Assembly (NCBI GenBank): GCA_038046325.1
Contig: JBBSWK010000207.1
Span: 1-31,104, forward strand
Direction: 5' to 3'
Source of the DNA: Nanobdellota archaeon
GTDB lineage: Archaea; Nanobdellota; Nanobdellia; Woesearchaeales; GW2011-AR9
DNA: 31,104 nucleotides
Shown here: positions 1 to 22,071 of the stretch, in pieces
Layout: every line of letters begins with the position of its first letter
Numbering within the stretch: the first letter of the stretch is position 1
The notes under the pieces: generated by a model
What the model saw: only the letters and a program-made list of their open reading frames with translations
Told to the model about the DNA's origin: nothing
Database searches by the model: none
Program-made: the position numbers and the translations under genes

Positions 1-2
1 TT

Positions 3-368
3 GTTGGAGTTGGCGCTTTATTCATGCACATGGGCGTTCTCTATTCTATCGGCAAACTGCAACCATCAAACCTGTATCATATTGTTTTCAACAATTTTGC
101 GCACGATTCAGTGGGCGGACAGCCTACTGCAGCCGACGCTATTGATATCTCTGCTTTAGCGAAAGCAAACGGATATAAAGAAACATTCCTAGCGCAAACG
201 GCAGAAGAAATTAGGCATGGTTTGTTGAAGATGAAGAATGCTGCCGGGCCGGTATTGTTAGAGATCCGCTGCAATAAAGGAGCGCGTAAAGATCTGGGAA
301 GACCAACACAGTCTCCTCTGGAAAATAAGAAGCATTTTGTCGAATTTCTGCGAGATGAAATTAAATGA
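3..368 (+). CDS. aepY: Phosphonopyruvate decarboxylase, C-terminal ThDP-binding part (5'-truncated by window edge)
   Basis: Frame is open from nt 3 (VGVGALFMHMG...). Motifs HIVFNNFAHDSVGGQPT, GPVLLEIR and GARKDLGRP match the C-terminus of phosphonopyruvate decarboxylases. Adjacent to a phosphonoacetaldehyde-reductase-like gene. Confidence 0.88.
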   Translation, partial: VGVGALFMHMGVLYSIGKLQPSNLYHIVFNNFAHDSVGGQPTAADAIDISALAKANGYKETFLAQTAEEIRHGLLKMKNAAGPVLLEIRCNKGARKDLGRPTQSPLENKKHFVEFLRDEIK

Positions 369-380
369 AATTAAATGAAA
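355..380. repeat. Short tandem repeat ATGAAATTAA x2.6 spanning the stop codon
   Basis: atgaaattaa atgaaattaa atgaaa at 355-380. Confidence 0.8.
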
Positions 381-400
381 ATTGATCAGGGAGTAGAGGC

Positions 401-1540
401 ATGCAAAGAGAATATGTTGGTTCAGGGTGTTTGATCCGTCTTAAGGAGGTTTTAGAAGCAGAAAAACCTTCATCTATTTTTTTGGTGACTGGAAAAGTGT
501 CGTATGGCCAATCCGGAGCTCAGAGAGTTATTGAACCTTTGCTTTCCAATTATAAAGTAACGTATTTTTCAGAGTTTTCTGTTAATCCACAATTGGAAGA
601 TATCAAGAAAGGAATATCTTTATACCGACAAGCTGGTTGTGACTTAGTTATTGCTGTGGGCGGAGGGAGTGCCATTGACATAGCAAAATCGATACATCTC
701 CTTGCAGCTCAGCCCGGAGCGGCAGAGAAATATATAACCAAAGAGCTTACTCCTGTTCATAAACCAAAACCATTTATTGCTATACCAACCACGGCGGGAA
801 CAGGATCAGAAGCAACCCATTTTGCCGTCATATACATAGAGAAGGTAAAATATTCTCTCGGCCACAAGGAATGGATGATTCCTCAGTATGTGTTTCTAGA
901 TCCTACTTTTACTTTAGGTCTACCTAAGTCTATTACTGCTTCTACGGGGATAGATGCGTTATGCCAAGCGGTAGAATCGTATTGGTCCACTCAATCAACA
1001 GAGGAGTCAAAAAAATATGCGAGGCAAGCAATAACCCTGATTTTGAATCATTTAGTTCCGGCAGTTCATAAACCTTCACTGCAGAGTCGCGAAGCAATGT
1101 TGCAAGGAGCGAACTTAGCGGGGAAAGCGATCAATATTTCTAAAACTACTGCTTGCCATTCTGTTTCCTATCCTATCACTTCTTATTTTGGAGTTGCTCA
1201 CGGTCATGCCTGTGCGCTGACACTGGGAGAGATGTGCAAGTATAATAACGATATAACAGATCATGATTGCCTGGATACACGAGGAGCAGCATATGTGAAA
1301 GGTATTCTTTCAGAATTATGCGAGCTGTTTCAAGTAAGTACTGTTGAAGAGATGCAGCGGAAGATTGATGGCATAATGGATCAGGTTGGACTTACCAGAA
1401 AACTTAGTATGCTTAACATATCTGCTCTCGAACATCACGATATTATTGTTGCTAATGGTTTTAATCCAGAACGGGTGAGAAACAACCCCAGAGAGTTAAC
1501 CGAGGGAGCATTGCGGGAGATATTAAAAAAGATTAGTTGA
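401..1540 (+). CDS. Iron-containing alcohol dehydrogenase, phosphonoacetaldehyde reductase (2-hydroxyethylphosphonate-forming) type
   Basis: GGGSAIDIAK, PTTAGTGSEAT, DALCQAVES (Gln where many Fe-ADHs have His) and HSVSYPITSYFGVAHGHAC. Directly downstream of the decarboxylase. GGAG-like RBS upstream. Confidence 0.85.
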   Translation: MQREYVGSGCLIRLKEVLEAEKPSSIFLVTGKVSYGQSGAQRVIEPLLSNYKVTYFSEFSVNPQLEDIKKGISLYRQAGCDLVIAVGGGSAIDIAKSIHLLAAQPGAAEKYITKELTPVHKPKPFIAIPTTAGTGSEATHFAVIYIEKVKYSLGHKEWMIPQYVFLDPTFTLGLPKSITASTGIDALCQAVESYWSTQSTEESKKYARQAITLILNHLVPAVHKPSLQSREAMLQGANLAGKAINISKTTACHSVSYPITSYFGVAHGHACALTLGEMCKYNNDITDHDCLDTRGAAYVKGILSELCELFQVSTVEEMQRKIDGIMDQVGLTRKLSMLNISALEHHDIIVANGFNPERVRNNPRELTEGALREILKKIS

Positions 1541-1588
1541 TGAAGGATTATTTTTTACCATAAAAAACCTAATTCCATAACCGCAGCC

Positions 1589-1622
1589 GAAGGCGAGGGC
1601 AAGTCACTACGTTCGTGCCTTC
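1589..1622. other. GC-rich intergenic imperfect palindrome (possible RNA hairpin, terminator or REP-like element)
   Basis: gaaggc (1589-1594) ... gccttc (1617-1622) enclosing gggcaagtcactacgttcgt, in an otherwise AT-rich spacer downstream of the reductase. Confidence 0.35.
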
Positions 1623-1702
1623 ACGAAAACTGAAGAATACAAGCAATATGAAGAATATCATATTGCTGTACAGGAATGAAATCTTTGTTTCATTCCTTGT
1701 AT

Positions 1703-1799
1703 CAGTTTTCGGAACTGAAAAATGATAGTTTTCATTTTTCATGTTTCCTAACGGAAAGATTTGAAATCATGTTTTATGATTTCATAATCTTCTTAAATC
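1703..1799 (+). promoter_or_regulatory. Cluster of four inverted repeats followed by a TATA-like box upstream of the cmk-like gene
   Basis: cagtt-N5-aactg (1703-1717), gaaaaatga-N6-tcatttttc (1717-1740), tttcc-N4-ggaaa (1744-1757), tgaaatcat-N5-atgatttca (1762-1784). CTTAAATC at 1792-1799 lies 21 nt before ATG 1820. Confidence 0.5.
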
Positions 1800-1819
1800 A
1801 TTTCTGCTTGGTTTTGTTC

Positions 1820-2539
1820 ATGAGTGGAAAGAAAAGAGAAAAGATGATTATCACTATTGACGGTTCTTCGTGGACTGGGAAATCAAGCTCTGCAAAAGCT
1901 CTGGCAAAAATGTTAGGGTACCAGTATCTGAACACCGGGGCAATGTTTCGAGCGATTGGATATTTTGTAAAACAGAAAGGTCTGAAAGAAGAAAAAGACA
2001 TCATTGGTGCGCTGAAGGATGTAACCATGGAATTTAAGCTGGTTCAAGGGGAAAGTAGATTATTTTTGAATAGTGAAGATGTGAATGAGCAGATAACCAG
2101 TAATGAAGTTGTTTCCTTGGCTTCAAAAGTGGCTGGCATCCCTGCAGTTCGAGAGAAACTTCTTCAGCTTCAGCGCCATATTGCCAAAGAGGGAGGATTT
2201 ATCGTAGAAGGCCGGGATACCGGCACCGCAGTCTTTCCAGATGCTGATTGGAAATTCTTTTTAGATGCTTCTATGGACATAAAAGTGAAGAGATATTTTA
2301 AGATGCTTCCGCCTGAGGAGAAAACAAAACATCCTCCTGGGGAAGTTCGCCAGATTATTACCGATATTGATGCACGGGATCGCAGCAGGCCAGTCGGACC
2401 GTTGACTAAGGCTAAAGATGCCATTCTCTATGATAATTCAGACAGTCCAAGCGCAGAACAAGATGCTATGGTGATGTGGTATTATATCACTAAAAGTGAG
2501 GAGATGATTCATAATCTTAATAACTTACACAAAAATTAA
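1820..2539 (+). CDS. cmk: Bacterial-type cytidylate-kinase-like protein (divergent)
   Basis: IITIDGSSWTGKSS P-loop, YLNTGAMFRA, EGRDTGTAVFPDADWKFFLDAS, RDRSRPVGPL. Start moved from the ORF-track 1676 to ATG 1820 (1844 also possible) because homology begins there and a TATA-like box precedes it. Confidence 0.8.
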   Translation: MSGKKREKMIITIDGSSWTGKSSSAKALAKMLGYQYLNTGAMFRAIGYFVKQKGLKEEKDIIGALKDVTMEFKLVQGESRLFLNSEDVNEQITSNEVVSLASKVAGIPAVREKLLQLQRHIAKEGGFIVEGRDTGTAVFPDADWKFFLDASMDIKVKRYFKMLPPEEKTKHPPGEVRQIITDIDARDRSRPVGPLTKAKDAILYDNSDSPSAEQDAMVMWYYITKSEEMIHNLNNLHKN

Positions 2540-2571
2540 AAATCTACAATCATTAAACGTCTGCCATCACC

Positions 2572-3300
2572 ATGGTTACCATAACAGAAATTCGTGAAAA
2601 ATGCAAAAAAGAATACTGGGGATTCTTTAATAGGTTAGTTCATGAAGTTGGTTTTTACTTCACTAAGCCGTTCATCAATACACCTATCACCTCCAATCAG
2701 GTTACCTTGTTCTGGTTGTTTTTAGGCGTAGTTGGAGCAGCGCTGTTGTCAACCGGCGTCTACAAATGGATGCTTTTAGGAATTATCATATATCATCTTG
2801 GGCATTTTTTTGATTGCGTTGACGGGAATTTAGCCCGATACCGCAATAAGCCCAGTTTGAAAGGACAATATCTGGAGCAGATCGCTCATCATATTACTAT
2901 ATTGTCTGTTTTGTGTGGTTTAACAGTTGGTACGTTCAGAATGACCGATAATGTTCTTTCATTATATTTAGGCGGAATAGCGGTTGGAGCTTTCGTATTT
3001 GCGAAGCTGTTTAACATCAACCTGATTTCGTATAAAGCTGAACTACGGGACAGAGTTGCACAGATCATAGATAAGCTTAACCCTCGGAAAAGAAGCAAAC
3101 TGACTATTTTCATTTTTGGTTTTGTGCGCATAGAACATCCCTTGAATCTGATGTTTTTCACTATCCTGCTTAATAAGCCTTTGGTCGGCTTAGGATGTTA
3201 TGCTTTTCTGCATACGGTAGAGATGGTGAAGAAGTTAGCGACGTCTCTGGTAAAGCTGCAGAAGGCGGATGACGAAACTGCTTTAGCACAGCAGAAATAG
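2572..3300 (+). CDS. CDP-alcohol phosphatidyltransferase family membrane protein
   Basis: ITSNQVT followed by a TM helix. Signature FFDCVDGNLARYRNKPSLKGQYLEQIAH. Several hydrophobic segments. Confidence 0.85.
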   Translation: MVTITEIREKCKKEYWGFFNRLVHEVGFYFTKPFINTPITSNQVTLFWLFLGVVGAALLSTGVYKWMLLGIIIYHLGHFFDCVDGNLARYRNKPSLKGQYLEQIAHHITILSVLCGLTVGTFRMTDNVLSLYLGGIAVGAFVFAKLFNINLISYKAELRDRVAQIIDKLNPRKRSKLTIFIFGFVRIEHPLNLMFFTILLNKPLVGLGCYAFLHTVEMVKKLATSLVKLQKADDETALAQQK

Positions 3301-3322
3301 GTCATAAGAAATCTAACCCGAG

Positions 3323-4252
3323 TTACACCCTTTTGTTATTGATCATATCTGCTAAAAAGCCAAAGAGAACAATCTGGATTCCTACCAACATGAATAAGGC
3401 GCTTAAGACGGTGGTAGGTAGTCTTCCGACATTACCTAGGGTGATAAATCGATATACCAGCCAAATTCCGAGAATAATGCCGATGCTGAAGAAACTCAAG
3501 CCGATTTTTCCAAAGAACTGCAATGGCTCATAGTTTCGGTAAATTCTAAATATATTTATCCAAGCCTTAACTGCATACTGGAATGGATTTTTGAAAAGCC
3601 TGCTCTTCCGCGTTCTTCTGGAATCAATAGGTATTTCGGTGATCTTGAATCCCTGCTTGGCTGCCTTGATGATTTGTTCTTGAGTGTAGGTAAAGGTGTT
3701 GATGAAATCTATTTCCCGCGCTAGTTCAGCGGTGAAAGCCCTAAAGCCAGTAGTAGAGTCGGTGATTCTAATTTTGGTTAAGGAGCTTAAGACTTTGGAG
3801 AATAAGATGTTTCCTATGCGTTTGGTGAGCGGCATGTACTGGATTCTTCCTCGGAATCTGCTGCCTAAGACGAGATCGTATCCCTGCTGTACTTTTTCAA
3901 TAAGTTGGGGGATGTGTCTGGGATGGTATTGGCCGTCAGCATCGGTATGAACGATGATGTCAGCTTTCCGCTCCAGGCATTCTTTCATTTCGGAGCGGAA
4001 AGTTTCCGCCAAGCCTTTGTTGCGGCGATGGGAAACCACTATAGCTCCATGTTCTTGGGCGATTTTTGCAGTTTGGTCTTTGCTTCCATCGTTTAAGACA
4101 AGTATCTTGTAATGGTACGAAGTTACTTTCAAGGCTTCTTTTATTTCAAGAATAGTTCTTCCGATGTCCCTTTCTTCGTTATAGGCGGGGATGGAAATGA
4201 TGATAAAGGGCTTTTTAGGTTTAAGAAGCTGTTTAGCAGGAATGCTTTTCAT
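3323..4252 (-). CDS. GT2 glycosyltransferase, polyprenol-phosphate sugar synthase (DPM1-like) with two C-terminal TM helices
   Basis: ISIPAYNEE, VLNDGSKDQT, HTDADGQY, LVLGSRF, DSTTGFRAF, hydrophobic C-terminal hairpin. Confidence 0.9.
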   Translation of the reverse strand: MKSIPAKQLLKPKKPFIIISIPAYNEERDIGRTILEIKEALKVTSYHYKILVLNDGSKDQTAKIAQEHGAIVVSHRRNKGLAETFRSEMKECLERKADIIVHTDADGQYHPRHIPQLIEKVQQGYDLVLGSRFRGRIQYMPLTKRIGNILFSKVLSSLTKIRITDSTTGFRAFTAELAREIDFINTFTYTQEQIIKAAKQGFKITEIPIDSRRTRKSRLFKNPFQYAVKAWINIFRIYRNYEPLQFFGKIGLSFFSIGIILGIWLVYRFITLGNVGRLPTTVLSALFMLVGIQIVLFGFLADMINNKRV

Positions 4253-4274
4253 CTCTTTATCGGCAAAAGTTCAG

Positions 4275-4321
4275 CTTAAATATTTTATGAATCTGGGCTT
4301 TCTATTTCAGAAATTATATAA
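4275..4321. promoter_or_regulatory. Divergent archaeal-type TATA boxes
   Basis: TTATATAA (4314-4321, preceded by purine-rich cagaaa) is 24 nt before ATG 4345. A reverse-strand TATTTAAG (4275-4282) is 23 nt before the start at 4252. Confidence 0.55.
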
Positions 4322-4344
4322 AGCAACTTTCTCCAATTTTAATA

Positions 4345-5643
4345 ATGAAGAATCGTAAGCTTATAATCCTCTTGGTATTAGCCGTTATTCTGTTAGGAGC
4401 AGCTGTTCTAAGATTGTACAATCTGGAAGAAGAGAGTTTATGGCTGGATGAGTGTTTTACTCTTGATTACAGTTCAAAGCCGATCCCTTCGCTGATAGAG
4501 ACCCTGAAGAAAGATGTTCATCCTATCGGGTATTATCTTCCCCAGCACCTGCTGTTGGATTATTTCGGTTCTTCGGAGATTAGTTTACGGATCTTATCAG
4601 TGTTTTTTGGAGTGCTTTCGGTGTATTTAACCTATTTGCTGGGGAAAAAATTCTTTTCCTGGAAAGAAGGGTTGCTGGCTGCTTTTTTTATGGCGATGTC
4701 GTATACCGCTATACTTTATTCTCAAGATGCAAAGATGTACAGCATGTTTGGAGCATTTTTCCTGCTTTCTCTGCTCGCTTTCATCAGATTTCTGGAGAAG
4801 CCCTCATGGCTAAACACGGTGTTCTTTTCTCTCTCTTCAGCATTGCTGCTGTATACACATATCATAGGATTAGTAATTTTTGGCGGTTACTTCTGTTTTT
4901 ATGTCACTGGTTATTTGCTTAAACATAATGCTGGCATTGGCTCTTCATTTTCTTATAAAACTCTTTTTTCTTCAAAAATATTCTTAGTCTTACTAATAGT
5001 CTTTTTGTTGTACTGGCCTTGGTTTACAATGTTAGTGCTGTATCAGCTTCCTCGTTTATACATCTCACTGGGAGAAAAGTTTATTGAAAAGACCGGGTTA
5101 AATCTTTTACCAGTTGTAGTTGCTAGTATGATATTTTTGGTTTTACTTTATGTAATTATTTTGTATCTTATGGTTAAAGGTAAAATTAATGTTGACAACA
5201 TCCAGAAACGCTTTGGATCTTCTACTTTCCTCGCGAATGAAAAGGCCTTGTTTTTATTATTACTACTTTTCTTAGCCTTTGATCTTTTAGTAAGCCGTTA
5301 TCTTTTTTCTTCGGTACCTATAGTTCGCTTTGTTTTTTTCCTGCTTCCTATGGGCCAGATTTTACTTTCTAGAATTTTACTGCGGATGAAAAGCACTCAT
5401 TTTGCTACTATTCTATTTGTTCTTTTTATGATAAGTGCGTCATTTGAGCTTTACAAGTATTACCAAGTTGATTCTAAGGAACAGTTTAGAGAAGCTGCGA
5501 AGTATGTTGAAAATCATGCTTCGGCAGCAGATATTTTATTTCTGCACCGTGCAACCATAGCTAAGCTCTGTTTTGATTACTACTATTCTGGTAATGTTGA
5601 GGAAATACGGCTGATAACTTCTGGCGAGGACGTTATTTGTTGA
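4345..5643 (+). CDS. GT-C fold membrane glycosyltransferase (GT39/GT83, PMT_2/ArnT-like); main part of a frameshifted gene
   Basis: LRLYNLEEESLWLDE, DVHPIGYY, LRILSVFFGVLSVYLTYLLGK, YSQDAKMYS, many TM segments, KEQFREAAKYV. The C-terminus appears cut short at 5643. Confidence 0.8.
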   Translation: MKNRKLIILLVLAVILLGAAVLRLYNLEEESLWLDECFTLDYSSKPIPSLIETLKKDVHPIGYYLPQHLLLDYFGSSEISLRILSVFFGVLSVYLTYLLGKKFFSWKEGLLAAFFMAMSYTAILYSQDAKMYSMFGAFFLLSLLAFIRFLEKPSWLNTVFFSLSSALLLYTHIIGLVIFGGYFCFYVTGYLLKHNAGIGSSFSYKTLFSSKIFLVLLIVFLLYWPWFTMLVLYQLPRLYISLGEKFIEKTGLNLLPVVVASMIFLVLLYVIILYLMVKGKINVDNIQKRFGSSTFLANEKALFLLLLLFLAFDLLVSRYLFSSVPIVRFVFFLLPMGQILLSRILLRMKSTHFATILFVLFMISASFELYKYYQVDSKEQFREAAKYVENHASAADILFLHRATIAKLCFDYYYSGNVEEIRLITSGEDVIC

Positions 5644-5825
5644 TGGAAAGAGCTGCTGGAAAAAGAGATGCCTATCTGGTCCTTACCCATAATTACCATA
5701 CTAAAGATTATTTTAAGCGAAAAATGGATGCGCTTTACGAATTAGTGGAGGAAAAGAAATTTATCGGGATAACTATTTACAAATATAGGATAAGTGATGC
5801 TTATTCGCGGACTTCAGAATCATAA
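5637..5825 (+). pseudogene. C-terminal fragment of the preceding GT-C gene in the -1 frame
   Basis: Overlaps the previous stop. AYLVLTHN...LYELVEEKKFIGITIYKY resembles the extracellular tail of such GT-C proteins. One extra T in the TTT run at 5636-5638 would fuse the two frames. Confidence 0.65.
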
Positions 5826-5867
5826 TCTATTTAAATCAATCCTAATGCAAATAAGCTGTGTGTAAGA

Positions 5868-6833
5868 GTGGTTAAGATTGGTGTCATTGGATCCGGTAAA
5901 TGGGGTGAAAACCATCTCAAAGATTTATCTAAGATTTCGTCCTGTCATTTGGTAGGATTAGCTGATATTGATGAAGGGAAGAAAGAATTGGCCGAGAGGC
6001 ATGGCATCAAATTCTTTAAGAATTATCAGGAGATGCTCCCTCATGTAGATGCAGTTACGGTGGTAACGCCCACTCTTTTTCATTATGAGATAGCGAAAGA
6101 TTGTCTTCTTCAAGGCAAACATGTCTTTGTGGAAAAACCTTTATGTTTTGATCACCAGCAGTCGGAAGAATTAGTACATCTGGCAAACGAAAAAAAGATC
6201 ATACTTTCCGTGGGATATGTTTTTCGCTTTAATCCACTGATGAACAGAGTCAAGGAGTTATTGTCGGTGATTGGCGAGATCCATTATATCTCGGGAAGGT
6301 ATATTCATTCTACCGTTCCGCCGCGGAAGGATTCCGGAGCTATTTTTAATCTAGGGGTTCACCTTATTGATTTTTTAAATGTTCTCCTTCCGCAAAATCC
6401 CCAAAAAATATATGCACGAAACTCTCATATTATTTCCAAGCATAATGAAGATTCCTCTTTTATCACCATCGATTATGGCAATTTTAGCGCACACTTAGAA
6501 GTCAGTTGCTGTCATCCCCTGAAAAAGAGGGATATGTGGATTATCGGTTCAAAAGAAAAACTGTATCTTGATTTTTTAGATCAAGTAATCGAGCGGCACC
6601 CGTTGGTGGTGAATGAGGATAAGACTGAAAGAAAAGAAACCTTCCGTGACCCGGAAGTGGGCAAAAATCAGCCTCTGTATGAAGAATTAAAATATTTTGC
6701 TCATCTCTGCAATAAGAAGAGCATTGGAGAGGGAGTGAATCTCAATCTTTCTGCAGAAAATGTTCTTACCACCAAGATGTGTTCTTTAGCTATAAAATCG
6801 GCACAACAGAATGAGGTTCAGGCAATAGAATGA
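5868..6833 (+). CDS. Gfo/Idh/MocA family NAD-dependent oxidoreductase (WbpB/WlbA-like sugar 3-dehydrogenase)
   Basis: KIGVIGSGKWG, DAVTVVTPTLFHYEIA, HVFVEKP, VGYVFRFNP, LGVHLID. GTG start. Confidence 0.88.
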   Translation: MVKIGVIGSGKWGENHLKDLSKISSCHLVGLADIDEGKKELAERHGIKFFKNYQEMLPHVDAVTVVTPTLFHYEIAKDCLLQGKHVFVEKPLCFDHQQSEELVHLANEKKIILSVGYVFRFNPLMNRVKELLSVIGEIHYISGRYIHSTVPPRKDSGAIFNLGVHLIDFLNVLLPQNPQKIYARNSHIISKHNEDSSFITIDYGNFSAHLEVSCCHPLKKRDMWIIGSKEKLYLDFLDQVIERHPLVVNEDKTERKETFRDPEVGKNQPLYEELKYFAHLCNKKSIGEGVNLNLSAENVLTTKMCSLAIKSAQQNEVQAIE

Positions 6834-8461
6834 AGAATGTTACAATCTCTACTACGGCTATGGTAAAAGATTCTGTAATAGGAGAGGGGTCGCAAATCTG
6901 GGAATTTGCAAATGTGTATGGAGCAAAGATAGGGGAGAATACTAAAATAGGATCGTATGTAGAAGTGCAAAAAAATACGGTCATTGGAAAGAATGTCATC
7001 GTTTCTTCCCACTCATTTATCTGCTCTTTAGTTACCATAGAAGATAATGTATTTGTTGGCCATGGAGTTATGACCATCAACGATCTTTATCCGCCGTCGA
7101 AAAGAAGAACCGGAACAGATGCAGGATGGAAATCAACCTTAATTAAAAAAAATGCAGTGATTGGAAGCAACGCTACCTTGATGCCGGTAACTATAGGTGA
7201 AAATTCAATTGTCGGTGCCGGAGCAGTGGTTACCAAGGATGTTCCAGATAATTGTATTGTAGCGGGAAATCCTGCGAAAATTATAGGGCAACTGCCTCAA
7301 GACCAGAGAAATGCCAGTGGCGCTATGAAAATACCCTTGGCTGATTTAAAATTACAGCATGCAAAAATACGTGATGAGCTAGACACGGCGATCAAGAAAG
7401 TGATTGATGATTGTTCGTTTATCATGTCGGAACAAATGGGTGTATTTGAAAAAAACTTTGCCGAATTTTGTAAGGTTAAGCATGCCCTTGGAGTGAGTAA
7501 TGGCACCAGTGCCATTTCCTTAGCCTTAGAAGCTTGTGGCATTAAAGAAGGAGATGAAGTAATTACTACCCCCCACACTTTTATTGCCAGCACGGAAGCA
7601 ATCTCCAAAGCAGGAGCAAAAATAAAGTTTGTGGATATCGAAGAAAAAACCAATTTGATTGATGTTAAAAAAATAGAATCAGCAATCACGGAAAAAACGA
7701 AGGCTATCCTCGCTGTTCATATGAATGGCCTCATGTGTGATATGGAGAGTATACGAACAATTGCTGATAAATATGGTCTGAAAGTCATAGAGGATGCTGC
7801 TCAAGCGCATGGCGCGTTGTATAAGCATAACTCTCCTGGCTACTATAGTGATGCAGCTACGTTTAGTTTTTATCCTGGGAAAAATCTCGGTGCCTTTGGA
7901 GATGCCGGGGCAGTAGTGACTAACCATGATCACATAGCAGAAAAAATAGCGATGCTGCGGAATCATGGCCGAAAACCAGGTGACAAATATCTTCACCAGA
8001 TAGAAGGTTATAACGAGAGATTAGATAGCCTTCAAGCAGCGGTGCTTACCGTAAAATTAAGGCATCTTCAGGAATGGAATGAACAAAGGATTAAAAATGC
8101 ACAGTTATACCATCAATACCTGCACACTGCAGGTCTCATTTTACCTCTCGCTCCAGAAAATTGCAAACATGTGTATCATCAGTATCCTATCCGCTGTAAA
8201 GATGGGGAAAGGGAAAAATTAATTCAGTTCTTAAAAGAGCACGGTATTAGTACAGGAATTAATTATCCTCTTCCTTTACATTTACAGCCAGCCTATGCTT
8301 ATATGGGCCATAAAAAAGGGGATTTCCCCGTAGCAGAGATGGTGACTGCAGAGGTTATCTCTTTACCTATGTTTCCTGAATTACAGGAAGAGCAAATTAA
8401 ATATGTAGCAGAAACAATTCATCAATTTTTAACTTTAAGAAATAAAACTGGAATACCATGA
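6830..8461 (+). CDS. Fusion of a hexapeptide-repeat N-acetyltransferase (WbpD/FdtC-like) and a DegT/DnrJ/EryC1/StrS PLP aminotransferase
   Basis: N-terminal IGEGSQIW/IGENTKIG/IGAGAVVTKDVP...AGNPAK. From residue about 166: MKIPLADL, VSNGTSA, EDAAQAHG, SFYPGKNLGAFGDAG, YNERLDSLQAA, SLPMFPEL. ATGA overlap with the upstream gene. Confidence 0.92.
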   Translation: MKNVTISTTAMVKDSVIGEGSQIWEFANVYGAKIGENTKIGSYVEVQKNTVIGKNVIVSSHSFICSLVTIEDNVFVGHGVMTINDLYPPSKRRTGTDAGWKSTLIKKNAVIGSNATLMPVTIGENSIVGAGAVVTKDVPDNCIVAGNPAKIIGQLPQDQRNASGAMKIPLADLKLQHAKIRDELDTAIKKVIDDCSFIMSEQMGVFEKNFAEFCKVKHALGVSNGTSAISLALEACGIKEGDEVITTPHTFIASTEAISKAGAKIKFVDIEEKTNLIDVKKIESAITEKTKAILAVHMNGLMCDMESIRTIADKYGLKVIEDAAQAHGALYKHNSPGYYSDAATFSFYPGKNLGAFGDAGAVVTNHDHIAEKIAMLRNHGRKPGDKYLHQIEGYNERLDSLQAAVLTVKLRHLQEWNEQRIKNAQLYHQYLHTAGLILPLAPENCKHVYHQYPIRCKDGEREKLIQFLKEHGISTGINYPLPLHLQPAYAYMGHKKGDFPVAEMVTAEVISLPMFPELQEEQIKYVAETIHQFLTLRNKTGIP

Positions 8462-9432
8462 ATAAAGAGCTATTCAAAAATAAAGTAGTCCTGGTTACGG
8501 GCGGAGCAGGTTTTATAGGCAGCCATTTAGTTGATAAAGCGTTGGAGTTAGGGGCAGAAAAAGTGGTTTGTTACGATAATCTTATTGGAACTAATAATAG
8601 CCTTGCCAATATCGCTCATCGTAAGTCTGATCCGCGGTTTACTTTTGTTAAAGCGGATATTAAGCATTATCAGGAAATAAAGCCTTGGGTGGAAGAAAGT
8701 GATATTATTTTCAACGAGGCAGCTTCAAAGTTAGTGGTTAGTTTAAAGGATCCAACTATTGATGTTCAAACCAATGTAGTGGGTAATTTTAATGTAGCAG
8801 AAATTCTACGGAAAAGCGAAAGTGATGCCAGGATAATACATGCTTCTACAGGATCGGTGTTTGGCAGCAATGATAGGCCGTTTGAAGAGACCGATCCAAT
8901 GAATCCTTCTACTGTGTATGGCATAAGTAAATTGGCGGCCGAAAAATATTTCTTGTTATACCATCGGCTTTATGGGATTAAAGCTACAGTATTACGTTAT
9001 TTTCATGTCTTTGGGCCAAGGCAGGATTTTACTGGCGAAGCAGGAGTAGTGGGAATTTTTGTATCTCGGGTGCTTAAGGGATTACCTCCTCAGGTATGCG
9101 GCACTGGGGAAGCCATTCGCTGTTTCACTTTTGTGAATGATGCGGTTGATGCCAACATTCTTTTGTATAAGAATAACAGTTCAATTGGGCAGGATTATAA
9201 TGTCGCTTCTCGGAACAGAGTCAGTGTGCTTCAACTGGCTAATGAGGTGATATCTAAGTACGGTACTCCTGGCATGAAGCCGGAGTTTATCGCTCCGCGG
9301 CTGGGAGAAAATTTTAAACCTATACCCAGTACTAAAAAAATAGAAAATCTGGGATTTAAGGAATCGGTTACTTTTAACGAGGGGTTGGAAAGAACCAAGC
9401 AGTGGATTGCTGTTCAGTTGGGACACAATTAA
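8458..9432 (+). CDS. Extended SDR NAD-dependent nucleotide-sugar epimerase/dehydratase
   Basis: VLVTGGAGFIGSHL, ASTGSVFG, YGISK (YxxxK), LRYFHVFGPRQ, RCFTFVNDAV. ATGA overlap. Confidence 0.92.
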   Translation: MNKELFKNKVVLVTGGAGFIGSHLVDKALELGAEKVVCYDNLIGTNNSLANIAHRKSDPRFTFVKADIKHYQEIKPWVEESDIIFNEAASKLVVSLKDPTIDVQTNVVGNFNVAEILRKSESDARIIHASTGSVFGSNDRPFEETDPMNPSTVYGISKLAAEKYFLLYHRLYGIKATVLRYFHVFGPRQDFTGEAGVVGIFVSRVLKGLPPQVCGTGEAIRCFTFVNDAVDANILLYKNNSSIGQDYNVASRNRVSVLQLANEVISKYGTPGMKPEFIAPRLGENFKPIPSTKKIENLGFKESVTFNEGLERTKQWIAVQLGHN

Positions 9433-9484
9433 TAGATTATTTTATTAAATTCTTTATTTTGGGCTGTGCTTCATAATCATAAAG

Positions 9485-9492
9485 TTTATATG
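9485..9492 (+). promoter_or_regulatory. TATA-like box
   Basis: TTTATATG preceded by aaag, 24 nt before ATG 9516 and only 6 nt before ATG 9498. Confidence 0.45.
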
Positions 9493-9515
9493 TAATTATG
9501 AAGAAAACCAGCAAC

Positions 9516-10472
9516 ATGAGAGGTTCTCCAAGTATAAAAGCAAAGCCAGAGATTAGTATTGTTGCTCCAGCTTACAACGAACAAGGATGCATTGAAGAAT
9601 TTGTGCAAGAAGCAGACAAGGCTTTTGATGAAAATGGGTATTCTGGCGAAATTATTGTCATTAACGATGCCAGCCGGGATAATACTTTGCCTATCTTACT
9701 TTCCCTACAGAAAAAGTTTCCAAGGTTAAGGATTATTTCGCATCGCAAGAATCGCGGCCTCACCTCGGCTATGATCACCGGCATTGAAAATGCCCGCTAT
9801 GATATTATATTTTTTACTTCTTCCGATTTGGAATCGCATACAAGGGAAGATCTTCCCAAACTGATCGCAGCTTTGGAACAAGGATATGACGTGGCTATTG
9901 GTTGGAGAACCAATAAGCGGCAAGGATTTTTGAAAACGCTCATTTCTAAAAGCTTTAATGCAGTAGTGAGATTACTATTCAACGTTAAATTCCGCGATGT
10001 AGGTTGGGTGCGGGCATTTCGTAAAGAAGTGTATTACAATATTGAATCTATGCGTTCAGATTGGCACCGTTATTTTGTCATTTTAGCCGCGCAACAAGAG
10101 TATAAAGTTAAGGAAGTCCCGCTGCGGTTTTATCCCCGAAAGTCTGGGAAATCAAAATATGGCCGAATCGGCTTGAAAAGAATTCCTGGCGGCTTTCTTG
10201 ATTTACTGGTAATCAAGTTTCTTACCTCTTTTTCTAGGAAACCGATGCGCATGTTTGGCACTTTTGGAGCTTTCTTGACCGCCTTAGGATCGTTATGCGG
10301 CCTTTATGTGTTGTACCTTAATTTTGTGGCGTTAGAAGCAGTAGGAACGCGCGTGCCCTTAGTATTACTGACGGTTTTTTTATTCCTGACTGGCTTGCAG
10401 CTTTTCGGATTAGGATTTGTAAGCGAGCTTATCGTTTCTAACAGTAAGAAACAGAAACGAAAGCAGAGTTAG
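9516..10472 (+). CDS. GT2 glycosyltransferase, ArnC/DPM1-like with two C-terminal TM helices
   Basis: SIVAPAYNEQ, INDASRDNT, GYDVAIGWR, RDVGWVRAFR, HRYF, SKYG, C-terminal LQLFGLGFVSEL. Start 9516 is preferred over 9498 from TATA spacing. Confidence 0.88.
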   Translation: MRGSPSIKAKPEISIVAPAYNEQGCIEEFVQEADKAFDENGYSGEIIVINDASRDNTLPILLSLQKKFPRLRIISHRKNRGLTSAMITGIENARYDIIFFTSSDLESHTREDLPKLIAALEQGYDVAIGWRTNKRQGFLKTLISKSFNAVVRLLFNVKFRDVGWVRAFRKEVYYNIESMRSDWHRYFVILAAQQEYKVKEVPLRFYPRKSGKSKYGRIGLKRIPGGFLDLLVIKFLTSFSRKPMRMFGTFGAFLTALGSLCGLYVLYLNFVALEAVGTRVPLVLLTVFLFLTGLQLFGLGFVSELIVSNSKKQKRKQS

Positions 10473-10546
10473 AATTGTAGAAATATTCACTATAGAATGC
10501 CTGAAGAGCATTAACAATAAGAAATAGAAAATACGGAGAAAAAATC

Positions 10547-12457
10547 ATGTGTGGAATTGCCGGGTGGTATGGGCCGAGTAATCGGAAACTTCTGGAGAAG
10601 ATGACTTCTTTTTTAGATCATCGCGGCCCAGATGGGGAAGGTTTTTTTGTCGACAAAAAAGTTTCTTTAGGGCATAAAAGACTGAGCATTATTGATCTTA
10701 AAACTGGTCAGCAACCTATCTATAATGATGATAAATCAGCAGTTATTGTCTTTAATGGAGAAATTTATAACTATAAAGAGATCAGAAAAGATTTAGAAAA
10801 AAAGTATACCTTCAAAACTAAAAGTGATACGGAAGTTATTTTGCGCGCCTACGAGGAATATGGCCCTGAATGTGTGCAAACGTTTAATGGCATGTTTGCG
10901 TTTGCGATCTGGGATGCTAAAAAGGATCTTCTTTTTCTGGCTCGGGATAGGCTGGGAGTTAAGCCGCTGTATTATTATCAAAATGCTACCAAGCTTATGT
11001 TTGCATCAGAAATAAAAGCCTTTCTGGCCGATCCTACTTTTCCTCGTCAATTACATCATCAGGCAGTTGCCGAATACCTCACTTTCCAGAATATTATGGA
11101 TGATAAAACTTTTTTTGCAGGTGTGAAAATGCTTCTTCCGGGACATTACCTGGTGGTGCAAGAAGGGAAGGATGTGATAAAACAATATTGGGATGCTTCT
11201 TACGTGAAGAGCAATAAACAGAAGGTCGAGGAGTATTATGCTGATTTTAGGTCAATCTTGTCACGATCAGTAGCTCGGCACATGGTCAGCGATGTTCCGG
11301 TAGGGAGTTATTTAAGCGGGGGATTTGATTCTGGTTCAATAGCTACCTTTGCGGCGGGAAAAAGCCAAAAAAGGATAGAAGCGTTTACCGGAACTTTTAA
11401 AGAAGGTGGAATCTACGACGAAACAAAAGGCTCAAGGTTGGTGGCTCAAAAGATTAATGCAGTTGTTCATGAAGCAGTCGTATCTTCTCAAGATTTTGTG
11501 TCTTCCATTGAAAAAATACTGTATCATCTTGATGAACCAAAAACCGGAATACCGGTCATTTCCCAGTATGTCGTTTCAAAATTGGTGTCAGAGCAGGTCA
11601 AAGTAGTGCTTACCGGTCATGCGGGAGATGAATTGTTTGCCGGTTATCCTATTTACAAGGTTGCATATTTTAAAGATCTAGTTAGAAAAAATCCTTTTAC
11701 TGCCTTGCGCTTCTTTTCTTTCTTTACCTGGAGCGAGATGCCCCGCAGCCTTTATTTTCTATTTTTTCCCCTTTTTGATAAGGAAGTTAAACACGGCCTC
11801 TTTATCATGTTTAACAAAAGACAGCGTAAAAAATTATTGTCGAAACAATTTTATCAAGGTTTGCCGGACAAAAATACAGTTTCAGTTTTAGAAAAATTCT
11901 GTCGCCCGGATCTGAAGTCTCAAACTGACAAAATTCAATATCTGTACTTGAAAACCTATCTCCCTTCCCTGCTGGTCTGTGAGGATAAGATGGGCATGGC
12001 GCACGCGATAGAAGCAAGAGTTCCGTTCTGTGACAATGAAATGGTTGATTTTGCCAATTCCATTCCTCTGAAATTTAAATTGTATGGCCATGAACTTAAA
12101 CATATTATAAAACAGAGCATGAAGAAGGATTTGCCTTCAATACATTACCATCAGCAGAAAAAAGGCTATCCTACTCCTTTCTCTTTATGGCTGCGCAAGG
12201 ATTTAAAAGAGTATGTTTATTCGGTCCTGCTCAGCGAGAGAACCAAGCAAAGAGGAATTTTTAATCAAAAATATGTCAAAAAACTTCTTGATGCACATTG
12301 CGGCCGCAGCAAAGACGGCTTAATGGACCTGGTCAATGCCGCGCGGATATGGTCGCTTCTCAATGTTGAGTTGTGGTGCAGGATATTTATAGACGGAGAA
12401 TATGAGAAGTTCGCCACAGATAAACTTAAAAAGCCAGAAAGAGCTGTGAAGGCATGA
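10547..12457 (+). CDS. asnB: Asparagine synthase (glutamine-hydrolysing) family amidotransferase, likely glycan amidation
   Basis: MCGIAG N-terminal Cys, HRGPDGEG, GHKRLSIID, FNGEIYNY, GMFAFAIWD, ARDRLGVKPLYY, YLSGGFDSG, GHAGDELFAGY, EARVPFCD. Confidence 0.93.
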   Translation: MCGIAGWYGPSNRKLLEKMTSFLDHRGPDGEGFFVDKKVSLGHKRLSIIDLKTGQQPIYNDDKSAVIVFNGEIYNYKEIRKDLEKKYTFKTKSDTEVILRAYEEYGPECVQTFNGMFAFAIWDAKKDLLFLARDRLGVKPLYYYQNATKLMFASEIKAFLADPTFPRQLHHQAVAEYLTFQNIMDDKTFFAGVKMLLPGHYLVVQEGKDVIKQYWDASYVKSNKQKVEEYYADFRSILSRSVARHMVSDVPVGSYLSGGFDSGSIATFAAGKSQKRIEAFTGTFKEGGIYDETKGSRLVAQKINAVVHEAVVSSQDFVSSIEKILYHLDEPKTGIPVISQYVVSKLVSEQVKVVLTGHAGDELFAGYPIYKVAYFKDLVRKNPFTALRFFSFFTWSEMPRSLYFLFFPLFDKEVKHGLFIMFNKRQRKKLLSKQFYQGLPDKNTVSVLEKFCRPDLKSQTDKIQYLYLKTYLPSLLVCEDKMGMAHAIEARVPFCDNEMVDFANSIPLKFKLYGHELKHIIKQSMKKDLPSIHYHQQKKGYPTPFSLWLRKDLKEYVYSVLLSERTKQRGIFNQKYVKKLLDAHCGRSKDGLMDLVNAARIWSLLNVELWCRIFIDGEYEKFATDKLKKPERAVKA

Positions 12458-14475
12458 TCAGCATTGTCACTATCTTACTGTTCTTCATTTATCTTTGGGG
12501 CTTAGGATTTTCTGTAACTTATTTCATTTATTCAAAAAATCGAGACCCTGAAAAGCCAAAACCTGATTTTTGGGAACGGGAGATTATGAATATAGGTATT
12601 GGTTTAGGCGTTTTTGCCATTCTTTCCATCATCCTTAACTTTTTTCGTGTCCCTTTGGATTGGAAAATTTTTTTATTGCTAAGCTTGATTGTTCCCATCT
12701 ATGCAGGAGCCACCATTTTAAAAAAGAATGGGTTTAGATTGCCATTGCCAACCAGATTTCCAAAGTTGGTCTTAACCAAAAACAATTTATTTACCTTTGC
12801 AGCCCTGTTTATTTTTGCGGTTTCTCTTTACATCTACGCTTCCGGAGCTTTTGCCTATCCCTATCTTGAAGATGAAGACCCCTGGGGGCATTCAGTAGGA
12901 GTGAAATACGTTGCTCTGAATAAAGATGCCTATGATCCACATCTCAGCCCTACCGGTGCAGTAAACTTAGATTTATCATATATAGATCCTTATCCGCCAG
13001 CGTATGATGTTCTGATGGGAATATTGCATCAAACTTCACCAAATCTTACCTGGACTTTAAAATTCTTTAACGCTTTGATTATTGCCTTAGGATTTTTGTT
13101 CTTTTATTTTTTTGTAAATTTGTTGGTGCAGCACAAAACCAAAGCTTTAGTAGCTACTTTTTTTTTGGCGGCTCTTCCTAGTTACCTATCTCATTTTATC
13201 TGGGCCCATTCCATGACTATTACGCTTCTTTTTCCTGCTCTGTATGCATTTACCAAAATTTTTGAAGAGAAAAAATGGGCTATCGTTCTGGCCGTAGTCG
13301 TGGGAGGCATCTGGGTAACTCAAAATCTTTCTCAACCGATTAAACTTACCACTATACTTTTGATTTACGCAGTAGTAGCGTCGGTTGTCAACTATCGTTT
13401 TTTGAAATATCACTTTGCCGGGATTTTTGGCGGGACAATTCTTTCTCTTTTTTGGTGGATGGCTATGATACATAAATATTCTTTACAATATTTTTTTGGA
13501 GCCTACGTGAGGGTGCCAGTTGCGCTTCGAGAGACCATGATCTCAAATTCAAGTGCGGGAACTGCTGTTAATACTGCATGGACGGCAGGATTTAGCTTTT
13601 TTGGAAAATTTCTGTCCATAATTAAAACTATCACTCATCCTGGCGGATCAGGATCAAGAGCATACACCCTTGGAGATTTCTTTGTAGCAAAATCAAATAA
13701 TATGATTAATGCTCCCATAGGGATAGGTGTGGTTCTAAGTCTCCTGACTTTATTTGGACTAGCATATCTAGTGTTCAAATACCGTTCTTCTTTAGTTTCT
13801 CAAGAAAATTGTTGGAGGATAGTCGTGTTGTTTTGGCTGATCTATACTTTCTGGGTGGTAAACGGTATGACTTTTCCGATTTCCATAGCTCGGGATGCGT
13901 TTAGAACTTGGTTTCTGTTGGCGATCCCGGTTTCCATCATAGCGGCAGAAGGGAGTTATGTTTTTATTAATACTTTTAGAAAAAATAAATTGGTGCAAGT
14001 ATTACTTACGGTGCTTATAGTAGCGGGAGTGATCTTAACTTCTGGAGTACAGAAATATGAAGCGAATACCTCTATCTGGCCGACTTCTGGATCATTTTCT
14101 ACTTCTCAGGAACCATTTTTGTATGGGGAATTATTTAAACAGCTTCCGCTAAACTCCAAGGTTTTTTTATATGCTCCTCGTGATAAATTAGTGATCGGAT
14201 ACGGCATGTTTAGTTGCGATTGGTGTCTGGAAGTTACTGATTTTAGAAATGAAGTTATCTATAAAGATGCAAATGAAGTATACTCTTTTTTAAAGAAAAA
14301 TGAATATCAATATTTTATGATTAATAAACACATGGATTATAAATATTTGACAGGTAAATTCGGACAGGAGGAAGTGGAATCTTTGCTACCAAAACGATAT
14401 CAAGAATTTTTAAGCTTGCCTGCTCTGGTTCCAATTTACTCTAATGAAAATGTAATCTTGTTTATGGTGAAATAA
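12454..14475 (+). CDS. Multi-pass membrane protein, putative GT-C fold glycosyltransferase
   Basis: More than 10 hydrophobic segments. First extracellular loop EDEDPWGH...DPYPPAYD carries an acidic motif typical of GT-C enzymes. Soluble C-terminal domain. ATGA overlap with asnB. Confidence 0.6.
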   Translation: MISIVTILLFFIYLWGLGFSVTYFIYSKNRDPEKPKPDFWEREIMNIGIGLGVFAILSIILNFFRVPLDWKIFLLLSLIVPIYAGATILKKNGFRLPLPTRFPKLVLTKNNLFTFAALFIFAVSLYIYASGAFAYPYLEDEDPWGHSVGVKYVALNKDAYDPHLSPTGAVNLDLSYIDPYPPAYDVLMGILHQTSPNLTWTLKFFNALIIALGFLFFYFFVNLLVQHKTKALVATFFLAALPSYLSHFIWAHSMTITLLFPALYAFTKIFEEKKWAIVLAVVVGGIWVTQNLSQPIKLTTILLIYAVVASVVNYRFLKYHFAGIFGGTILSLFWWMAMIHKYSLQYFFGAYVRVPVALRETMISNSSAGTAVNTAWTAGFSFFGKFLSIIKTITHPGGSGSRAYTLGDFFVAKSNNMINAPIGIGVVLSLLTLFGLAYLVFKYRSSLVSQENCWRIVVLFWLIYTFWVVNGMTFPISIARDAFRTWFLLAIPVSIIAAEGSYVFINTFRKNKLVQVLLTVLIVAGVILTSGVQKYEANTSIWPTSGSFSTSQEPFLYGELFKQLPLNSKVFLYAPRDKLVIGYGMFSCDWCLEVTDFRNEVIYKDANEVYSFLKKNEYQYFMINKHMDYKYLTGKFGQEEVESLLPKRYQEFLSLPALVPIYSNENVILFMVK

Positions 14476-17332: not shown

Positions 17333-17388
17333 ACATATAATTTAAAAATTAAAGTCAAATTTTGTTCTGTGGGTTTTACTGGCGTACC

Positions 17389-21693: not shown

Positions 21694-22071
21694 ATGATTA
21701 AAAAGGATAAAAATAAAAAACTAGGTTTGTTTTTGTTAGTCTTAAGTGTAATCTTTCTAATAACAGGATATAGGTTAAGTAGTAATGATCTTCTCTCATC
21801 CCCCTATCTTTTGCTGATTATTATCGGCTTCGTAACTGGCTTCATAGCAGCATATTATATAGGAAAATCAAAGGATTATCAAAGACTTAATCCAAAAATA
21901 AGCTCTAAAAAAGATTTAAAACATTATTTTGGTCGCGGCGCATTGGCAGGTTTGATAGTTAGTTTATTATTAAATTTCTCTTTAATTAAAACAATCATAT
22001 GGATAATTACTTTTGAGGCAATAACTTTAGCTTTTTACTATTTCTTCAATCAAAAAAAATCTAAAAAATAA
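21694..22071 (+). CDS. Hypothetical membrane protein (about 4 TM)
   Basis: 125 aa, four hydrophobic segments with Lys-rich ends, very AT-rich. ATTAAATA at 21664-21671 is 23 nt upstream. Confidence 0.7.
   Translation: MIKKDKNKKLGLFLLVLSVIFLITGYRLSSNDLLSSPYLLLIIIGFVTGFIAAYYIGKSKDYQRLNPKISSKKDLKHYFGRGALAGLIVSLLLNFSLIKTIIWIITFEAITLAFYYFFNQKKSKK

Follow-up and report, generated by a model that had tools for sequence, protein, structure and literature searches.

A gene cluster for methylphosphonate (MPn) biosynthesis is known from the marine thaumarchaeon Nitrosopumilus maritimus (Metcalf et al. 2012, cited in PMC9381506), and Nitrosopumilus is the only characterised source of this compound, with SAR11 and a few other bacteria as gene-based candidates (PMC9381506). 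In this cluster and its thaumarchaeal relatives, phosphoenolpyruvate (PEP) mutase (PepM), phosphonopyruvate decarboxylase (Ppd), an iron-containing alcohol dehydrogenase (Fe-ADH), MPn synthase (MpnS) and a nucleotidyltransferase are encoded among surface-polysaccharide genes. A marine survey found MpnS among archaea only in Thaumarchaeota and Crenarchaeota (PMC9381506), and a lake study reported Woesearchaeota-like pepM and ppd, with no mpnS by KEGG annotation (PMC10734540); our literature search, which had most subscription journals outside its coverage, returned no report of MpnS in DPANN archaea, Woesearchaeota or Nanoarchaeota. Here we describe a seven-gene operon, part of which is carried at the start of a contig of a Nanobdellota archaeon (JBBSWK010000207.1, assembly GCA_038046325.1), and which we interpret with high confidence as an MPn biosynthesis operon of a DPANN-type archaeon. 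Our overall explanation is that the operon makes MPn, which is very probable, and fixes it to a membrane-associated alcohol through a cytidine monophosphate (CMP)-phosphonate route, and we give this explanation as a whole a probability of roughly 0.6.

Among bacteria, the Streptomyces fosfomycin enzymes Fom1, Fom2 and FomC comprise a PF01467-PepM fusion, a Ppd and an Fe-ADH that make 2-hydroxyethylphosphonate (HEP), which in fosfomycin biosynthesis is then cytidylylated: Fom1 turns HEP into CMP-HEP (PMC6697681). Such PF01467-Ppm fusions are common in bacteria (PMC8942020). The group 1 clusters named 'Burkholderiales_CDP-OH' combine a cytidylyltransferase-Ppm fusion with phospholipid biosynthesis genes, the presence of a CDP-OH gene being taken from the group name; they have been read as making a phosphonolipid via a CMP-phosphonate, a product that has never been characterised (Li and Horsman 2022, PMC8942020).

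The window analysed here, 31,104 nucleotides (nt) long, is the entire contig C207 of a metagenome-assembled genome (MAG) of 231 contigs and 0.94 Mb, which is 85.65% complete. It starts inside ppd, and the 5' part of this gene is the end of contig C19 of the same genome. When C19 is read on its minus strand and joined to the plus strand of the window by means of an independent contig from the European Nucleotide Archive (ENA), L020, the operon has the following order:

C19, minus strand: cytidylyltransferase (PF01467)-PEP mutase fusion, 435 amino acids (aa), identified by TIGR02320 and PF01467
C19, minus strand, between the PepM fusion and the 297-aa gene: MpnS homolog (EC 1.13.11.73), 460 aa, matching PDB entry 6b9s
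C19, minus strand, between mpnS and ppd: HD-like protein, 297 aa, so called from its invariant residues and an AlphaFold2 (AF2) model
C19, minus strand, contig end: ppd, codons 1-218
Window 1..368 (open reading frame, ORF, 3-368), plus strand: 3' end of ppd, last 121 codons, TIGR03297 positions 246-360
Window 401..1540, plus strand: Fe-ADH, 379 aa, PF00465 (143.8 bits) and PF25137 (107.5 bits)
Window 1541..1819: spacer between Fe-ADH and the kinase gene, 279 nt (64-72 nt in orthologous loci, by the coordinates of L004, L011 and L020)
Window 1820..2539, plus strand: bacterial-type (d)CMP kinase (Cmk), 239 aa, TIGR00017; a longer ORF runs from 1676
Window 2572..3300, plus strand: PF01066 (CDP-alcohol phosphotransferase family) membrane protein, 242 aa, 42.8 bits (gathering score 22)

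The join of the two contigs is supported by L020 ('Hain_H51_01um_R3', 51,460 bases), which encodes an Fe-ADH exactly equal to that of the window and is 99.98% identical to the final 4,487 bases of C19 in reverse orientation and 99.88% identical to positions 1-6539 of the window. According to L020, the gap between C19 and the window is 113 nt, all of it within ppd. Contigs from four further runs, taken from Logan, reach about 370 nt beyond the first base of the window, and nt 4, 10, 21, 43 and 45 of the window differ from all five other assemblies (L020 and the four Logan runs). These five differences at the contig end indicate that the apparent loss of the GDG thiamine-diphosphate motif of Ppd, which reads GVG in the window, is a contig-end artefact; we rejected such a loss, as GDG is intact in L020.

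The enzymes leading to HEP were assigned by comparison with family models. Searched against the whole genome, the PEP mutase model gave one match above its cut-off, that on C19, where the fusion protein reaches 390.4 bits with TIGR02320 (equivalog cut-off 319.55) and its motif EDKVGSKRNS agrees with the diagnostic EDKxxxxxNS. The two pieces of Ppd both follow TIGR03297: the first 218 codons, on C19, cover positions 1-204 of the model with 260.8 bits, and the window fragment scores 134 bits, compared with 56 bits for sulfopyruvate decarboxylase beta. The intact protein of L020 (378 aa, its DNA 99.9% identical) reaches 492.9 bits, above the equivalog cut-off of 312.5, and its GDG, from the GDG...NN thiamine-diphosphate motif by which the class is recognised, is intact, whereas it scores 123.9 bits with the sulfopyruvate decarboxylase beta model, under the cut-off of 221.5 for that model. 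An Fe-ADH gene follows ppd in all related loci, and from this conserved place we infer that the enzyme is the phosphonoacetaldehyde reductase that makes HEP.

The gene that decides the nature of the product, mpnS, lies between pepM and ppd and therefore outside the window, on C19. Its protein aligns over its full length (residues 3-458) with N. maritimus MpnS (6b9s; 542.5 bits, E = 8e-162) and scores 301.1 bits with HepD (6b9r). It is thus a full-length protein with two helix-turn-helix/cupin repeats that is nearer to MpnS than to HepD, which is how we delimited the class. The residues that discriminate the two enzymes are H148, Q152, F162, I/V184 and H190 in MpnS, with I/Y162 and E/G184 in HepD (Lockwood et al., PMC9381506, supplementary table). 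In our protein H141, Q145, F155, I177 and H183 align to MpnS H148, Q152, F162, I184 and H190, a set that includes the iron ligands (H148, Q152 and H190), and all five are conserved without exception in 19 aligned DPANN and thaumarchaeal homologs. K21, R95, Y103 and N138 are invariant in the same alignment, and we take them to be the counterparts of K28, R102, Y110 and N145, which in the MpnS structure paper of Born and colleagues, from 2017, reportedly bind the substrate. On this sequence evidence, the homolog probably oxidises HEP with O2 to MPn and CO2; the MpnS signature and the position of the gene in the operon make HEP a likely intermediate and MPn the likely product.

Within DPANN archaea, relatives with 65-79% identity to this MpnS are annotated only as 'helix-turn-helix domain-containing protein', and identity to thaumarchaeal MpnS is 57-60%. 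A quick maximum-likelihood tree places our MpnS and every sequence labelled Nanoarchaeota or Woesearchaeota in a clade of 30 sequences, with a Shimodaira-Hasegawa-like approximate likelihood-ratio (SH-aLRT) support of 96, apart from a clade of 90 sequences that holds every MpnS labelled Thaumarchaeota. The trait is rare in the phylum: MpnS occurs in three of the 400 other genomes sampled from it, namely those of the two remaining species of the genus and one from a different family.

The operon shares with the thaumarchaeal loci the core pathway, the glycan setting and the same H/Q/F/I/H signature, and differs from them in several respects. Thaumarchaeota have a stand-alone PepM, a Ppd split into two subunits, a separate PF12804 nucleotidyltransferase and two sulfatase-family proteins flanking MpnS, and their loci (L008 and L009 in our set) have no PF01066, Cmk or HD-like gene, while the DPANN MpnS forms a clade of its own. 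Compared with the fosfomycin cluster, the DPANN operon is without a Fom3-type methyltransferase, FomD and HppE and has instead MpnS and a membrane transferase, which points to a cell-bound group as the product, not an antibiotic. The 'Burkholderiales_CDP-OH' clusters, in turn, are bacterial, lead through a transaminase to 2-aminoethylphosphonate (AEP) or 1-hydroxy-AEP, and have no MpnS.

The genome that carries the operon is archaeal and DPANN-like, as judged from its archaeal marker, its size of about 1 Mb and its relatives in DPANN lineages. It encodes ribosomal protein L19e, which is archaeal/eukaryal, and a search of the genome for the bacterial ribosomal protein L20 found none. A motif scan of the MAG gave no 16S rRNA gene and only three weak 23S-like matches, so that the assignment to domain is based on ribosomal protein families. 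The genome size is about 1.1 Mb (0.7-2.1 Mb among the sampled genomes of the phylum), the habitat is groundwater, and the nearest homologs of both MpnS and the transferase come from MAGs named 'Nanoarchaeota archaeon' or 'Candidatus Woesearchaeota archaeon' by NCBI. This DNA is present in groundwater metagenomes from two studies. Well H51 of the Hainich, the source of L020, is oxic, with 2.73 mg/L dissolved O2 (PMC8672522), which fits an O2-dependent MpnS.

These results bear on an earlier note made from the window sequence, which had proposed an HEP module wired to a CDP-alcohol transferase. The four genes it placed on the plus strand (the end of ppd, Fe-ADH, Cmk and the CDP-OH homolog) are all where it put them, the decarboxylase being present as a C-terminal fragment cut by the contig start. 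The pepM and cytidylyltransferase genes that it suggested looking for upstream exist, fused to each other, on the adjoining contig, and none of the three findings that it named as fatal was obtained, since pepM is present, the decarboxylase does not score as a sulfopyruvate decarboxylase and the genome is archaeal.

The gene order seen here is found again in other, independent assemblies and MAGs, as well as in the two further species of the genus in the genome collection, so it is not due to chance. On single contigs, L004 (122 kb, GCA_030697505.1) and L011 (135 kb) carry the cytidylyltransferase-PepM fusion, MpnS, the 297-aa protein, Ppd, Fe-ADH, Cmk, PF01066, a glycosyltransferase family 2 (GT2) gene on the minus strand, a GT-C gene and amino-sugar genes, and the PF01066 gene follows the cassette in all loci of this type (L004, L011, L020, G068 and G224). 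MpnS stands between pepM and ppd in every one of them and is present in all variant loci. Altogether, there are four different arrangements of DPANN loci in which a PF01066 gene comes after the MpnS cassette: the type just described and three rearranged ones. In a Woesearchaeota MAG (L006/L007), PF01066 lies on the opposite strand just after Fe-ADH, without Cmk; in L010 the order is swapped to Fe-ADH, PF01066 and Cmk; and in a genome of another family (G157; L025, G157:C10:34000-50000) a PepM-NTP_transf_3 fusion (580 aa) is followed by MpnS (473 aa), Ppd, Fe-ADH and PF01066. The latter locus also has a GT4 gene, a flippase and a GT2 gene before the fusion and a methyltransferase at its end, and its PF01066 protein, of 237 aa, has Thr in place of the fourth Asp. 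Near MpnS, three loci carry a radical SAM gene of 512-518 aa (L006 11562-13100, L007 8010-9548, L010 811-2367), in L010 two genes before MpnS, in L006 and L007 immediately behind it; it is absent from our own locus. A role as Fom3-like methyltransferase was rejected for this gene, as the L006 copy is of the SPASM type and matches neither Fom3-type nor B12-dependent radical SAM methyltransferases.

Activation of the phosphonate is suggested by the N-terminal domain of the PepM fusion, which scores 60.8 bits with PF01467 and in which the HxGH motif reads HDGH. Residues 4-136 match the cytidylyltransferase domain of Fom1 (5x3d) with 165.7 bits, about three-fifths of the aligned positions being identical as judged by eye. 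The domain may use HEP, ahead of the MpnS step, or MPn, once MpnS has made it.

The PF01066 protein is polytopic, with five hydrophobic segments, and its profile finds among PDB entries two solved archaeal CDP-alcohol phosphotransferases, AF2299 (4o6m, E = 1.4e-14) and IPCT-DIPPS (E = 6.4e-06). These are its nearest solved relatives, and the D1xxD2GxxAR...G core, on the second and third membrane helices, aligns with them. In our protein, the motif reads D81xxD84GxxAR(x8)G98xxxE102xxxH106, so that D81, D84, G85, A88, R89 and G98 are kept; unlike AF2299 and IPCT-DIPPS, it has Glu and His for the third and fourth Asp and no fused cytoplasmic domain. The His is invariant in 12 members of the clade, and Thr or Asn stands there in more distant DPANN homologs. 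We regard the protein as a homolog with a variant motif and a putative phosphotransferase, in which H106 could serve as the catalytic base. Orthologs with more than 80% identity occur, among the sampled genomes of the phylum, only beside the MpnS cassette. In a relative without pepM (G011), the gene for a 139-aa PF01467 cytidylyltransferase is followed after 18 nt by that for a 33%-identical homolog, which suggests that the subfamily generally uses a CDP-activated small group made next door. The locus concerned (L024, G011:C6:2000-14000) consists of an aminotransferase, the 139-aa cytidylyltransferase and PF01066, then a short-chain dehydrogenase/reductase and a second PF01066, Fe-ADH_2 and a 653-aa type I phosphodiesterase; judging by its gene set, it may be a distinct system for CDP-head-group decoration within a glycan island. 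Three more PF01066 genes are present in our own genome, on contigs C152, C106 and C96. Of these, the C106 copy alone has a near-canonical D..DG..AR...G...D...D, with a spacer from AR to G that is one residue short, and the C96 copy has a DCVDGN(I/L)AR start as in the gene of the window and is also without the fourth Asp.

The kinase gene adjoins the transferase gene, in either order, in L004, L011, L020 and L010. Its product scores 180.9 bits with TIGR00017 (cut-off 135.55), its best solved relatives are Cmk structures (1q3t, 124 bits), its P-loop GSSWTGKS is intact and a GRDTGT motif is present. The start at 1820 agrees with the orthologs, and the start at 1676 is probably an overcall; the spacer before the gene is roughly 210 nt longer than in the orthologs. 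A separate archaeal-type Cmk is encoded on contig C110 (106.8 bits, cut-off 102.1), which makes the Cmk of the cluster an extra copy. Most simply, it would rephosphorylate CMP set free in the predicted transferase reaction. The earlier note was right that a Cmk-like kinase is present, and this kinase is best read as recycling CMP, not as a step of the pathway.

The 297-aa protein gave nothing significant in searches of Pfam, NCBIfam and PDB sequences: it reaches 14.1 bits with the Pfam HD family (threshold 22), and an Atlas feature search returned weak HD/SidE_PDE leads. Its family comprises 34 clusters among 1.8 billion representatives, and five residues are invariant across 25 homologs (H74, H110, D111, H150 and D222), the HD superfamily being recognised by H...HD...D metal ligands and the HD fold. 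The AF2 model has a predicted local distance difference test (pLDDT) score of 91.8; VIA-align ranked HD and HDOD proteins at the top with Z of 7-9, a weak score where the fold is helical, and Foldseek found no match in PDB at E<=0.001. The pointers to an HD fold are thus the VIA-align result and the invariant residues, from which the protein is probably an HD-type metal-dependent phosphohydrolase. At the level of a guess, it might proof-read or hydrolyse a CMP-phosphonate.

Taken together, the operon suggests the following route. PEP mutase would convert PEP to phosphonopyruvate, Ppd would decarboxylate this to phosphonoacetaldehyde, the Fe-ADH would reduce the aldehyde to HEP, and the MpnS ortholog would turn HEP and O2 into MPn and CO2. 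The Fom1-like domain would then use cytidine triphosphate (CTP) to form CMP-MPn, or CMP-HEP ahead of MpnS, and, on the cytoplasmic side of the membrane, the PF01066 homolog would pass the phosphonyl group from CMP to a hydroxyl, either of an archaeol- or polyprenol-type lipid or of a lipid-linked glycan. CMP would be released, and the adjoining bacterial-type Cmk would convert it to CDP. The steps of PepM, Ppd, Fe-ADH and MpnS are supported by sequence, and we infer those of activation, transfer and CMP recycling. For the transfer of a CMP-phosphonate by the PF01066 homolog with recycling by Cmk, taken by itself, the balance tips slightly in favour.

Several observations weigh against parts of this explanation. 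The Fe-ADH scores 182.8 bits with TIGR03405 (Phn_Fe-ADH, PhpC/FomC type), under the cut-off of 423.7, and 184.2 with the lactaldehyde reductase model. The transferase does not show the complete signature D1xxD2GxxAR(x8)GxxxD3xxxD4, with E102 at D3 and H106 at D4, and in the H51 assembly a T at L020 7733, which corresponds to G at window 3133, creates a premature stop at codon 188 of the transferase that may be a population variant or an error. In Cmk, the motifs LNTGAMFR and IDARDRSR replace the usual LDTGAMYR and RDxxD...R. These substitutions (LNTGAMFR; IDxRD) are kept in four cluster-linked copies, and with IDGS(S/A)WTGKS and LNTG(A/S)MFR as its invariants, this subfamily may have an altered specificity. 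All the loci are glycan islands, and the adjacency of their genes could partly reflect a shared neighbourhood; any single contig of the MAG may be misbinned; and a search for RNA runs holding the locus listed none.

The same evidence has to be weighed for other accounts of the locus. The activation domain resembles an enzyme specific for HEP, the demonstrated substrate of Fom1, so CMP-HEP may be transferred instead, with MpnS as a side branch, or esters of both HEP and MPn may be made. Marine dissolved polysaccharides, which Repeta and colleagues reportedly described in 2016, are said to carry both kinds of ester. We consider this account unlikely: MpnS is present in all own-type and variant loci, its active-site and signature residues are intact, and a conserved enzyme that consumes HEP implies that HEP is not the sole end product. 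Here the earlier note was partly borne out, since HEP is indeed expected as an intermediate, whereas for the decorating group, which it took to be HEP, MPn is the likelier candidate. Its idea that a CMP-activated phosphonate serves a CDP-alcohol-type transferase is reasonable in view of the Fom1-like domain, though the transferase has a noncanonical catalytic motif.

A further possibility, which we regard as quite unlikely, is that the transferase and Cmk are part of the glycan island and not of the phosphonate pathway, the transferase using an ordinary CDP-alcohol donor such as CDP-glycerol and the phosphonate being installed by another enzyme or released free. Homologs of the transferase with 23-36% identity occur in 34 of the 400 sampled genomes of the phylum, all without MpnS, so the family is not phosphonate-specific; in the pepM-less G011 two such genes lie near the TagD-sized cytidylyltransferase, one of them immediately downstream; and our own genome has its three other PF01066 genes. 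This account is opposed by the orthologs of more than 80% identity, which stand solely beside the MpnS cassette, by the place of PF01066 right after Fe-ADH in rearranged architectures, one of them with a different nucleotidyltransferase, and by our failure to see any LicD or sulfatase-family phosphonyl transferase candidate in the window or on C19. The transferase might also work in the classical direction, with CDP-archaeol as donor and the hydroxyl of HEP as acceptor, giving an archaetidyl-hydroxyethylphosphonate head group. Its best NCBIfam matches are lipid head-group synthases (led by archaetidylinositol phosphate synthase, 43.6 bits, far under the cut-off), and HEP has a free alcohol, like glycerol phosphate; in such a scheme neither the fused cytidylyltransferase nor MpnS would take part in the transfer, an alcohol group is absent from MPn, and we hold the scheme to be very improbable.

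Beyond the operon, the window continues with genes for glycan assembly:

Window 3323..4252, minus strand: GT2 glycosyltransferase of the AglJ/dolichyl-phosphate-hexose-synthase type, 309 aa, PF00535 (86.1 bits) and TIGR04182 AglJ (153.9 bits, under cut-off)
Window 4345..5643, plus strand: GT-C (PMT_2/Agl23-like) membrane glycosyltransferase, PF13231 (31.4 bits) and TIGR03663 (33.7 bits)
Window 5868..12457, plus strand: amino-sugar branch, with a GFO/IDH/MocA dehydrogenase, an acetyltransferase-aminotransferase fusion, an epimerase/dehydratase, a GT2 and an AsnB-type amidotransferase

The earlier note had the four genes leading directly into GT2 and GT-C genes; the GT-C gene is on the plus strand, and the GT2 gene is on the minus strand and convergent with the transferase gene. 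The GT2 gene has the same position and strand in L004, L011 and L020, and in L010 a minus-strand GT2 also comes after the CDP-OH/Cmk pair, there following Cmk. Compared with L020, the GT-C gene lacks 1 nt at 5633, which shortens its product to 432 aa (493 aa in L020 and L011, 491 aa in L004); the loss is an error of assembly or else a true frameshift. The amino-sugar genes have the same order in L011 and L004. What remains of the window is likewise a glycan island, which encodes amino-sugar enzymes, more GT2, GT1 and GT-C proteins, methyltransferases, an SGNH protein and a Wzx-type flippase. Two ORFs, 12454-14475 (673 aa) and 17362-19221 (619 aa), have no significant family match and could be polymerase- or GT-C-like membrane proteins, and a 125-aa hydrophobic ORF at 21694-22071 has a weak match, under threshold, to CTP_transf_1, the CDP-diglyceride/CDP-archaeol synthase family (E = 0.0017). 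The GT2, GT-C, amino-sugar and flippase neighbours suggest that the modified molecule ends on the cell surface.

The MPn core pathway of N. maritimus, the Fom1-type activation domain and the predicted pairing of a bacterial Ppm-cytidylyltransferase with CDP-OH were already known. New are the DPANN host lineage, to which no paper in the literature searched links MpnS, the setting in terrestrial oxic groundwater and the joint presence in one operon of MpnS, a PF01066-type transferase, a dedicated Cmk and an HD-like protein. The route of attachment to the envelope seems to differ from that predicted from marine archaeal gene clusters, and would represent a second, genetically distinct module for installing MPn, with the PF01066-type transferase and Cmk replacing the sulfatase-family transferases. 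MPn is the accepted precursor of methane in oxygenated water, by way of C-P lyase, and no freshwater producer of it is known; an MpnS operon in an organism of oxic aquifers makes a terrestrial or freshwater source testable. It is possible, and we put this forward tentatively, that ultra-small DPANN archaea of oxic groundwater, and perhaps of lakes, are unrecognised MPn producers that install MPn through a CMP-phosphonate with a variant transferase (His for the fourth Asp) and a dedicated Cmk, the product being an MPn lipid or glycolipid on the surface of an episymbiont. A genome-reduced and probably host-dependent archaeon would then be spending seven genes on decorating its surface with C-P bonds.

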